Below, piece after piece: positions 1 through 3,000 of a DNA stretch of 11,784 bases. Each line of letters starts with the position of its first letter. The stretch's first letter is position 1. The DNA is taken from the UHGV virus genome UHGV-2165552, one strand, 5' to 3'. Made by a program: the position numbers. The DNA comes from a virus.

Positions 1-3000
1 CGCCAGCGCGATGTTGCTGCGCTCGATGCAAAATACTCGAGGGAATTAGCCGATGCGAGAGCTGAAAATGAAACTCTGCGTGCTGATGTTGCTGCTGGTC
101 GTAAGCGCCTGCGGATCAACGCCACCTGCTCCGGTACCGTGCGTGAAGCCACCGGCACCTCCGGCATGGATAATGCAACCGGCCCCCGACTGGCAGACAC
201 CGCTGAACGGGATTATTTCATCCTCAGAGAACGGTTGATGACAATGCAGAAGCAGCTGGAAGGGGCACAGGAATATATCCGCACTCAGTGCCTGAATTAA
301 CAGAGCCAGCTTAATCGCTGGCTTTTTCATATCTGAATTTCATCGCGCATCTCACGCGCATATCACATCCCCGAGCCTTTCAGAAAGTTGAGCCTGAGAA
401 CTGCCGTATATGGTGGCGACCATCTCGGGGCGGCTTTTCTGTGAGACAGGCTCAATTTTCTGAAAGGTAAGACGCTATGAACTATCCGACGATTGTTAAC
501 GGTATTGATTTCCGCGATCTTGTTTTTGTGACAGGCAACGAGCCGGTGACGGATACCCGAAAGGTTGCCGTAGCATTTGGCAAAGAACACAAAGATGTAT
601 TGCGGAAAACAAGAGCCGTTGTTCAACAATGCTCAAAAGAATTTGCAGAGCGCAATTTTGCGCTTTGCTATGAAAACAATGAGTTACAGAACGGTAAACC
701 CCAGCCCATATATCGAATGACAAAAGACGGTTGGACGATGTTGGTATTTGGTTTTACGGGGAAAGCTGCTATGACCTTTAAGGAAGCGTACATTCAGGCT
801 TTCAACTGGATGGCTGAGCTTATTCAGCAAGGTCTGGCGAATCTGGAGGCGGAGCGCAACGCTGTAATGCTGGAGTACATGAAAGAGAAAGATGTCGCCA
901 GTATGTCAGGTCGTTTGCTCAATCGCTGGGGCAGGGTGAAGAAGCCTCAGTTGCTGGCAAGGCTGGACAGGCTGGAGCAGCAGGGGCAGATTGCGTTACC
1001 CGGATTTGATAAAGGCATTTCAGCCTGACATAGCCATGCGCCGTATCGTCGCAGTATTCCCGCATTAACAGAGACCTCAGCCAGACACTGGACCTCCTGC
1101 GCGAGTGTGTGGGGATAATCAAAAACGATGCACACCGGGCTTTCCACGTTTTCAGGTAACGTGAGCGTTTTCCCGCATGGCCGCCTGTCCGGTGCGGTGG
1201 TGGAAGAAACCGGATAAAACAACCATATTGTGTAAATATCAATCAAACAAGACGCTGCTGTGTGAATTCTGAAAAATCACAGCGGTCATTATGCGTCAGT
1301 TTTTAACAGAGGACGTCAGAAAGTGACATGGCAAAGCTGGACTGGAAAAAACTGGAGCAGGCATTCCGACGCGAACATGCCGAAACGGGAATAACATTAC
1401 TGGAGTGGTGCCGTAAGAAAAAGATTAATTACAACACCGCCAGAACCCGTATAAAAATGGGCAAAATCGATCATGAAATCGATCATAAAACCGATCATGA
1501 AATCGATCATGACATCTCAGATGAAGAACCCAGCAATGACGCGGGTTCCGACGATGAAAAATGCGCAAAAAATTCTGAAAAAAACTGCGCAAATTCGGCA
1601 GAAACGAAACGCAACAGCAGATCGGGCAATCCTCACCCCGTTGCCCGGTTTAGCGACCGTAACACCCACGCCGTGAGACACCGTGGATATGCGAAGTATC
1701 TTGAGGCAGATAACCTCATGGATGATGCGTCCGATATGGTGCTGTTCGATGAACTGGTGTTCACCCGTGCCCGCGCACTTTCAGTAACAGGAACACTGAA
1801 AAAAATGTTCGCCGACCTGAAAGAGGCGGCTGACGTGGAAACCCGTGTTGCCCTGTACGACAAAATACTTAAAGCCGAACAGGCTCTTGACCGGAATATT
1901 GCCCGTATCGAGTCAATTGAACGCTCATTGCTGACGCTGGACGTTCTGGCGGAAACAGCACCAAAACTTCGTGCTGACCGGGAAAGAATCAACGCTGCCA
2001 GAGATAAACTCAGAGCGGAAACCGATATTCTGACCAGCCAGCGTCGAGGCGTTGTTACGCCTGTCAGTGACATCGTGTCATCGCTGCATGAAATGAGTAA
2101 TTCGGGGAGACTGGATGACATTCCGGAAGAATAAACCGCGATGTGATGAATCTGCAGAAATGACTGAGACCGAACAACGTCTGTTCATTATGACAAAACT
2201 GAGCAATCCCTGGTGGCGCCTCAATCATCTCTACAAAATACAGAACGAAAAAGGTGAACTGGTCACCTTCAGAATGCGACCGGCGCAACGTCAGTTGTTT
2301 CGTAACATGCATAATAAAAACATTATCCTGAAAGCGCGCCAGCTGGGATTTTCCACAGCCATTGATATTTATCTTCTCGACCAGGCATTATTCATTCCGC
2401 ATCTCAAATGCGGGATTGTCGCTCAGGATAAACAGGCTGCCAGTGAAATTTTCCGCACAAAAATTGCTGTACCGTTTGATCATCTCCCTGACTGGCTGAG
2501 AGCCTCATTCACCATCGTTGAACGTCGTAGCGGAGCCAGCGGTGGCTATATCCTGTTTGGTCACGGCTCGAGTATCCAGGTGGCAACCTCATTCCGTTCA
2601 GGTACGGTGCAGCGCCTGCATATCTCAGAGCACGGCAAAATTTGCGCAAAATATCCGGCTAAGGCGAAAGAACTGCGAACCGGTACACTTAATGCCGTCT
2701 CTGATGAGTGCATTATTTTTGATGAATCCACTGCTGAAGGTGTGGGTGGCGATTTTTACGAGATGAGTAACCGGGCACAGGAAATCACTGCATCAGGGCT
2801 GGCGCTGACGCCACAGGATTATAAATTCCATTTTTACGCCTGGTGGCAGGATCTCAAATACAGCGCCAGAGTGCCGGAAAGCGGACTTAAGCTGTCACGG
2901 GAAAAAACAGCGTATTTTTCTGCGGTTGAAAAAGCAATGAACATCACGCTTACCGATGAGCAGAAACACTGGTACATCTGCAAGGAAACTGAACAGCGTG

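Follow-up and report, generated by a model that had tools for sequence, protein, structure and literature searches.

A conserved structured RNA leader pairs the Shine-Dalgarno sequence of rha and precedes other accessory genes in temperate phages of enterobacteria

Results

A long hairpin encloses the Shine-Dalgarno sequence of rha

The virus genome UHGV-2165552 was analyzed over a stretch of 11,784 nucleotides (nt), the whole of which is called the window here, and this work concerns an RNA element that lies between the Rz spanin gene and the rha gene of this genome. The region tested is 100% identical to Escherichia phage Lyz12581Vzw, and the window comes from a Shiga-toxin-type lambdoid phage. 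Its gene order runs from the 3' end of the Rz spanin gene (stop at 300) through a hairpin with a T-run and an intergenic stretch to rha and the terminase genes. The rha coding sequence (477-1028; this and all other features of the window are on the plus strand) specifies a 183-amino acid (aa) protein with Phage_pRha and ORF11CD3 domains, and its ATG at 477 is the earliest possible start because an in-frame TAA occupies 468-470. Nucleotides 345-476 form a conserved plus-strand structured RNA leader, a member of a class of about 115-135 nt with a long stem, P2, as its core, and rha is the gene under the predicted control of this leader.

P2 is built from two 21-nt arms, 376-396 and 447-467, which the inverted-repeat search returned as 95% complementary with 50 nt between them, and which on a base-by-base reading form 20 Watson-Crick pairs and a single wobble, G387·U456. 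The Shine-Dalgarno (SD) sequence of rha, AAAGG (463-467), closes the 3' arm and ends 9 nt before the ATG. Folding of nt 360-490 as RNA gave -53.4 kcal/mol, compared to -33.6 ± 3.9 kcal/mol for dinucleotide shuffles (z = -5.0; 0 of 200 as good), and P2 was seen in both the minimum free energy (MFE) and the centroid structure; the minus strand folded more weakly (-48.0 kcal/mol). Throughout the window just two inverted repeats of at least 14 nt with arms within 150 nt were found, of which P2 is the only one of its quality. The other (1292-1359, 18-nt arms, 78% complementary), a weak repeat that may have arisen by chance, covers the ATG at 1328 with which the small terminase gene begins. An initial annotation of this DNA, made from the sequence alone, had described two 20-nt arms with one G-U wobble and an AAAGG within the 3' arm, had judged the stem exceptional for an intergenic region, and had proposed folding of this interval as a check. 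All of this was borne out, with the correction that 21 positions are paired and that the stem continues inward into a further helix, P3.

P3 joins AGAACUGCCG (397-406) to CGGCUUUUCU (431-440) in the MFE structure. Between P3 and P2 lies a bulge, GUGAGA (441-446), that is present on the 3' side only and forms a junction or hinge; it reads GUGCGAA, AUGCGG or GGGCGA elsewhere, and a bulge confined to the 3' side, mostly of 6-7 nt and ranging from 5 to 8, occurs in nearly every homologue. The apex carries a short hairpin, P4 (GGUGG-CGA-CCAUC, 412-424), which was seen in MFE structures, differs in sequence and length across homologues, and is deleted in two loci (L085 and L087).

Covariation supports a plus-strand RNA structure

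Homologous loci were chosen by the relatedness of their Rha proteins, 80 from IMG/VR and 35 from GTDB genomes, the hosts of the latter including Xenorhabdus, Morganella, Providencia, Erwinia, Pantoea, Rosenbergiella, Yersinia and Gilliamella. Upstream of these genes the architecture is constant and the sequence drifts. When 36 representatives with less than 93% identity were folded as single sequences, nearly all of them gave the SD-containing P2, a 3'-side bulge of 6-7 nt, a P3 of about 10 base pairs (bp) and a variable apex. An alignment made with MAFFT only and analyzed with RNAalifold did not recover P2, owing to misregister by 1-nt indels, and an automatic junction parser proved unreliable; both were replaced by covariance-model alignment. 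The model was seeded with five in-register sequences, its plus-strand matches were gathered, and the model was rebuilt and the matches realigned.

In alignment A4, which holds 42 plus-strand matches, 92.7% of the cells are standard pairs, compared to 68.6 ± 0.8% with shuffled 3' partners, and changes on both sides occur at 30 of the 31 pairs (303 cells). Moving the partners by 1-3 columns lowered the pairing to 34-51%. Alignment A6, in which 55 distinct sequences are aligned and the PK5-PK3 helix described below is included, has 89.3% of its cells paired, against 67.2% after shuffling, with double changes at 38 of 40 pairs; it is structure-ordered and padded with N, and the register of PK5-PK3 was set for each sequence, so that the unbiased test of that helix is the loop permutation given below. 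No shuffle out of 500 attained the observed pairing values. P3 is 92.5% paired with double changes at nine of its ten pairs, and both G residues of the SD are paired in all 55 distinct sequences. Thus the complementarity of the arms, which the initial annotation had suggested following in related phages, is kept through many compensatory changes among Rha relatives whose identity is only 36-100%. A plus-strand RNA hairpin under selection, with the SD inside it, stands from that early description; the hairpin is neither self-contained nor specific to rha, P2 being one helix of a larger leader.

The two strands behave differently. Under a second covariance model all plus-strand leaders score at least 54.9 bits and all minus-strand readings at most 30.8 bits, the window itself giving 99.9 and 30.8 bits, respectively. 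G·U and U·G cells number 97 versus 49 A·C and C·A cells, and 30 of the latter come from a single site close to the P2 base at which C·A is conserved. Because the strand scores differ, G·U cells outnumber A·C cells, and most A·C cells occupy one site, the functional molecule is, on comparison of these sequences, the plus-strand RNA, which rules out a palindrome that acts as DNA. The C·A itself is the sixth pair from the P2 base in 30 of 58 leaders (columns 30/133 of alignment A5, equivalent to C381-G462 of the window; CCUUUC.../...CUAAAAGG), where the window has a C-G pair. This mismatch might be protonated as an A+·C pair, or it might serve as a deliberate point of weakness beside the SD.

A second, non-nested helix covaries between phages

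Immediately 5' of P2 lie 7-8 nt whose complement is found in a loop segment directly before the P3 3' strand, and the two segments covary between phages. In the window these are PK5, CCCCGAG (369-375), which directly abuts P2, and PK3, CUCGGGG (424-430), which lies in the apical loop against the P3 3' strand. Other leaders have CACAGAA/UUCUGUG, CGAGAG/CUCUCG, CAUCGAA/UUCGAUG, CACCGAA/UUCGGUG, CGUCGAA/UUCGACG, CUUCGAG/CUCGAAG, GCAUAGAG/CUCUAUGC, CCAAAGA/UCUUUGG or CAGCAGA/UCUGCUG. The pairing was evaluated in an alignment-free test on the 55 distinct leaders, in which the 30 nt that precede the P2 core were searched for their best ungapped helix with the apical loop. This helix was found at the same relative place in 52 of the leaders, and native partners reached a mean score of 17.4, compared to 13.7 ± 0.32 when the loops were reassigned (0 of 10,000 permutations reached the native value). 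In A6, at least 53 of the 55 sequences have a standard pair at each of the six inner positions of this helix, with 13-31 double changes per position.

The helix also appears in folds of shortened chains. In 10 of 12 leaders truncated before the 3' strand of P3, PK5-PK3 closes the MFE structure; for the window it is present in the MFE structure when the 3' end lies at 428-437, and P2 and P3 prevail from 461. On these thermodynamic folds, PK5-PK3 and P2/P3 would constitute what defines a metastable leader, two conserved helices that cannot be nested, one of which is available earlier on the growing chain.

Peripheral parts of the leader and its upstream boundary

The 5' end of the leader is a small GC hairpin, P0 (345-359; GCGC 345-348 with GCGC 356-359, loop AUCUCAC), which has a homologous hairpin in most of the 55 distinct leaders. 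It lies in a tandem 11-nt direct repeat, CGCGCATCTCA/CGCGCATATCA (344-365), and its arms coincide with the repeat. Stem variants include GCGCC/GGCGC, UGCC/GGCA, UGUGCA/UGCACA and GCGUC/GACGU, together with GCUC/GAGC in loci L039 and L091 (by eye). Locus L006 has lost one repeat unit through an 11-nt deletion and has no P0; because this variant exists, P0 is probably dispensable. Among phage records, 52 match at 90-95% identity, and these include a group of Shiga toxin 2a (Stx2a) phages (13 matches, H9-H21; 93.4% identity) that align over 170 nt and not 181. The shorter matches would fit a deletion of one repeat unit that removes P0, a deletion inspected directly in L006 only. The linker between P0 and PK5 (360-368 in the window, and its equivalents) is A/C-rich and G-poor in most leaders, e.g. 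AUUAACAACAAG and CAUCAACAACACC, and its composition recalls single-stranded ribosome standby sites or the (ARN)n sites of Hfq.

Outside the conserved leader, just past the Rz stop codon, the hairpin AGCCAGC-TTAATC-GCTGGCT is followed by TTTT (304-327) and in most loci marks the cassette's upstream limit. Its counterpart is labeled a terminator in the records of phages phi80 and HK106; a terminator scan of the window flagged it in the minus-strand reading only. Leaders in other contexts have no hairpin of this type.

The leader precedes several gene families

The leader was found in 916 of 5426 complete E. coli genomes, at a median of 1 and a maximum of 4 places per genome, and nothing is annotated there in RefSeq. 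The two E. coli/phage matches whose annotated context was viewed both lie between lysis genes and rha, and in phage phi80 (locus L001) the leader stands upstream of the prototype rha gene. A second copy in Lyz12581Vzw (L002 1700-1813, 83 bits) is located upstream of the window, between lysozyme R and Rz, before an antirepressor gene (ant) of the P22_AR_N family, and its non-nested pair is CACAGAA/UUCUGUG, unlike the CCCCGAG/CUCGGGG of the window. Other copies precede a gene for a Rha+ANT protein (L102) and a KilA-N protein gene in Salmonella phage SPN3UB. In phi80 a shortened leader (L001 5587-5683, 59.8 bits) has the apex deleted and retains P0, a GAAAGU/ACUUUC complementarity and the paired SD; the gene after it encodes a 242-aa protein similar to N15 gp59 and lies beside cos. 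A weak third match to the leader model, at 33.4 bits, is situated downstream of rha in another locus (L035 2179-2289). One IMG/VR contig (L014 70-376) carries four tandem tRNA genes upstream of the lysis/rha region (Rfam tRNA, 56-71 bits).

A cargo-independent pattern scan of IMG/VR gave at least 122 leader instances. Among the matches listed, the downstream genes encode 50 distinct Rha proteins, 14 KilA-N proteins, 9 HNH_3+AP2 endonucleases and 7 short Rha proteins; rarer are weakly Rha-like proteins (5), an unassigned 198-aa family (4), T5orf172/MUG113 (1) and P22_AR_N (1). The initial annotation had related the hairpin to the deleterious effects of Rha expression, a rationale that is too narrow for a leader that also precedes KilA-N, P22-type antirepressor, HNH and GIY-YIG/T5orf172-like genes. 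The nearest upstream genes mostly encode spanins and sometimes a Q-like protein with a zinc-finger-like motif (by eye), and so the cassettes appear to be placed in late operons. Between HK106 and phi80 the stretch from the Rz end through the terminator and the leader is 99.5% identical, and divergence sets in at the start codon (L240 1501-2193 compared to L001/L239), followed by a GIY-YIG nuclease family protein in HK106, according to RefSeq, and by rha in phi80. The leader is therefore a mosaic exchange boundary for cargo genes.

Two annotations run into the leader. GenBank phi80 (JX871397, L239 2169-2723) starts rha 36 nt upstream, within the leader hairpin, and the RefSeq entry (L001 4104-4622) uses the conserved SD-ATG start; the SPN3UB record has a 52-aa 'hypothetical protein' on the minus strand across the leader. 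Both the early rha start and the 52-aa open reading frame (ORF) look like annotation artefacts of an unrecognized RNA element.

Comparison with catalogued elements and signals

A search of Rfam 15 over the window element returned microRNA models only (E about 1-9, 50-70 bits under the gathering scores), and no match, including to C4, c4-a1b1, IsrK, riboswitches and ribozymes, was obtained over the leader in 10 further loci. The literature searched contained no description of the leader, which may have been mentioned earlier, as a dyad symmetry, in the original rha study. Dispersed palindromic repeats, i.e. repetitive extragenic palindromes and bacterial interspersed mosaic elements (REP/BIME), enterobacterial repetitive intergenic consensus sequences and intergenic repeat units (ERIC/IRU), and miniature inverted-repeat transposable elements (MITEs), were rejected on the copy number and on the two viewed contexts given above. 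The initial annotation had offered both a dispersed palindrome and a pair of DNA binding sites as alternatives: the first fails on the arm search in the E. coli genomes, and the second on the free drift of arm sequences whose complementarity is kept.

No intrinsic terminator was detected in 360-480, where the U-rich 435-438 is itself paired in P3. A rule-based scan of window positions 1-1500 gave no sigma-70-like promoter, and when 58 distinct leaders were scanned in the same way between -70 and the ATG, only one had a site, upstream of the element. Two candidate promoters, TTTCAT-N17-TATCAC in the P0 spacer and an internal TTGAGC-N16-TATGGT in the window, were not conserved by eye. Coupling to a leader peptide was also rejected: a 17-codon ORF of the window (411-464) ends in the 3' arm of P2, the frame, start and length of such upstream ORFs vary, and 3 of the 36 representatives have none. 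The microRNA-size RNA 24B_1 of phage phi24B maps to the lom region and not to the leader, and likeness to a binding site for IHF or to a K-turn was judged by eye only and was unconvincing.

Discussion

The leader described here is apparently undescribed, and it was found in many temperate phages of enterobacteria before antirepressor-like and nuclease genes. It probably acts in cis as a translational throttle on read-through late transcripts, with PK5-PK3 as a folding intermediate or an anti-sequestering pseudoknot. At equilibrium the RNA would fold into the 21-bp P2, the 6-nt 3' bulge, the 10-bp P3 and the apical P4, and the finished mRNA would be a poor template for initiation because this hairpin base pairs with the SD of rha. 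Lacking its own promoter, the cassette would depend on late transcription, being placed behind a terminator in a Q-antiterminated late operon and transcribed by read-through only. In such a setting the leader would throttle an accessory and potentially harmful gene for a DNA-binding protein or nuclease on a very abundant transcript.

The non-nested helix is a candidate device for relief or timing, because it is transcribed before the 3' arms, closes the MFE structures of truncated chains, and gives way to P2 and P3 from position 461. Forming first on the growing chain, PK5-PK3 would tie both ends of the 5' arm and hinder the zippering of a helix of two turns while the polymerase still holds the 3' end, leaving the SD briefly accessible. 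Such a delay would either permit translation of nascent RNA for a short time or create an ON conformer that can be switched. Whether the helix acts kinetically or in a fold-back pseudoknot, we infer that its formation would oppose closure of the SD-proximal part of P2.

Several points weigh against this throttle. Translational repression is predicted from the pairing of the SD alone, and a stem with a calculated stability of -40 to -55 kcal/mol makes any protein synthesis hard to explain, relief by PK5-PK3 being only proposed. A nested fold with PK5-PK3 falls short of the stability of the hairpin by 26 kcal/mol (-33.7 versus -59.6 kcal/mol), and RNAfold cannot score a true pseudoknot; therefore PK5-PK3 would act only kinetically, with the help of a factor, or as a true pseudoknot. 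The absence of P0 from the Stx2a-phage subgroup, as judged by match length, indicates that some parts are non-essential. Because most loci were collected through homology to Rha or through a sequence pattern, they give a biased sample of the cargo genes. Finally, alignments A4, A5 and A6 were fitted to the structure, and the register of PK5-PK3 in A6 was set per sequence, which inflates the pairing percentages; the permutation and slid controls argue against an alignment artefact, and the margin is large.

A more ambitious reading, which we advance tentatively and which is possible without being probable, is that the leader represents an unrecognized, widespread class of phage cis-regulatory RNA, a portable leader that would travel with selfish or accessory DNA-binding and nuclease genes of late operons, or be recruited by them, and in which PK5-PK3 would be the switch, serving either as a one-shot co-transcriptional timer or to sense a factor from the host or the phage.

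So stable a stem needs active opening, and this could be supplied by RNase III. A block of rha translation and its relief by this enzyme, both raised in the initial annotation, are plausible. About two helical turns are the minimal substrate of the E. coli enzyme, and a helix-bulge-helix layout with an asymmetric internal loop recalls the RNase III sites of T7; P2 of the window is an uninterrupted helix of 21 bp, or about two turns. A cut in P2 would free a 3' fragment bearing the SD and so activate translation, as in the lambda N leader or T7 early mRNAs, or it would trigger decay of the rha or ant message, and such gating would be compatible with the throttle, adding relief or clearance. It is less general because many homologues have one to three conserved mismatches in P2 (a C·A at one position in 30 of 55 leaders, others in 13 of 55), which would weaken recognition. 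It also leaves the covariation of PK5 with PK3 unexplained, and the literature searched contained no report of cleavage. On balance we regard an RNase III-gated leader as somewhat unlikely.

The leader could also be a static pseudoknotted sensor, riboswitch-like or a protein operator, in which P2, P3 and PK5-PK3 coexist, with P3 and PK5-PK3 folded back along P2 at the bulge hinge, and in which a ligand, an ion, temperature or a conserved host or phage protein stabilizes or breaks the fold and so sets access to the SD. Three covarying helices, one of them non-nested, fit this proposal, as do conserved unpaired junction nucleotides (GAGRA at the P2/P3 junction, RUGNGR in the bulge, GG(G)C after PK3), a size and complexity typical of aptamer domains and, in leaders of the window type, a stacked length of P3 plus PK5-PK3 (17-20 bp) near that of P2 (21 bp). 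A rigid fold-back is strained, however, by the absence of a linker between PK5 and P2, and by 5' arms of P2 that range from about 21 to about 29 nt among classes of leader, a difference for which P3 plus PK5-PK3 do not compensate; in the longer leaders, as deduced from the length of the 5' arm, the pseudoknot could fold back only if P2 opened in its SD-proximal part. Moreover, the cargo genes are tied to no metabolite pathway, and there is no candidate ligand or protein. We consider a static sensor unlikely.

Excision of a trans-acting small RNA from the late transcript, with the pairing of the SD as an incidental feature, is very improbable. Hairpins of Shiga-toxin phages that are processed to small RNAs have been reported (24B_1, PMC4426718), antirepressor genes are classically under small-RNA control (sar, c4; PMC12197685), and the PK5 sequences of the two leaders of a single phage differ (CCCCGAG versus CACAGAA), as specificity determinants would. 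Against this, a role in cis is favored by a constant spacing to the start codon and by SD GG residues that are paired in every distinct sequence; the arms are not conserved in sequence and so point to no common target in trans; and no small-RNA family was matched. An element at the DNA level, whether a protein-binding palindrome, a recombination linker for cargo swapping or a mobile palindromic repeat, would account for the mosaic boundary between phi80 and HK106, but it is disfavored to the point of being scarcely tenable, since the arms change and stay complementary, G·U is tolerated and A·C largely not, the orientation is always that of the downstream gene with very different scores for the two strands, and a median of one copy per genome is no dispersed repeat.

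Rha, KilA-N and Ant-type proteins are among the commonest temperate-phage gene products of unknown role, including in Shiga-toxin phages, and some act on the lysis-lysogeny switch. A shared leader that hides their ribosome-binding site (RBS) gives a concrete and testable handle on how expression is limited within a very active late operon, and, if the proposal is true, a switch based on PK5-PK3 would decide the timing of antirepressor-like protein synthesis. The leader is also a new RNA motif that annotation has missed, leaving records that are blank, carry spurious ORFs across the region, or start rha inside the leader. Its two conserved, mutually non-nested helices could furthermore serve as a model for the control of RNA folding pathways.

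In its predicted action the leader would resemble known RBS-sequestering phage leaders, from which it would be set apart by its portability across gene families, the lack of an internal promoter and the covarying non-nested helix. In phage T4, stable hairpins hide the RBS of homing-endonuclease genes (I-TevI/II/III, segB and mobE of Aeh1) and of late genes (e, soc, 49) on read-through transcripts (PMC2988022). Both systems have promoter-less or embedded accessory cassettes on long polycistronic transcripts, an SD held in a very stable hairpin, and HNH and GIY-YIG cargo. In T4, however, a late promoter inside or just before the hairpin gives transcripts without the 5' arm, and none was found for the present leader; the T4 hairpins are also simple and gene-specific, whereas the leader is one homologous RNA of about 115-135 nt, with a non-nested helix, across gene families.

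The logic of delayed folding is shared with the 5' untranslated region of the MS2 maturation-protein gene and with the hok mRNA of plasmid R1, where the SD is paired upstream at equilibrium and an earlier, incompatible helix forms on the growing chain. The folding pathway of hok was likewise inferred from coupled covariations. There is no homology to either in sequence or architecture, neither an antisense partner nor processing at the 3' end is known for the present leader, and a kinetic role in the present leader is suggested by thermodynamic folds of truncated chains only. The RNase III sites of the lambda N leader and T7 R1.1 consist of two helices with an asymmetric internal loop and a duplex of about 20 bp near a start site, a layout that recurs in the window, where the duplex takes in or borders the RBS. 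Many homologues of the leader differ from these sites in having conserved mismatches, and PK5-PK3 has no counterpart in the lambda N and T7 sites.

In P22 (sar) and in P1 and P7 (c4), an RNA pairs at the ribosome-binding site and so blocks antirepressor synthesis (PMC12197685). The targets are again of the antirepressor type, and in P1 the regulator is encoded upstream on the same transcript. The difference is that sar and c4 are separate antisense or processed RNAs that act through pairing between loop and target, whereas the leader described here pairs the SD in cis, within a single hairpin.

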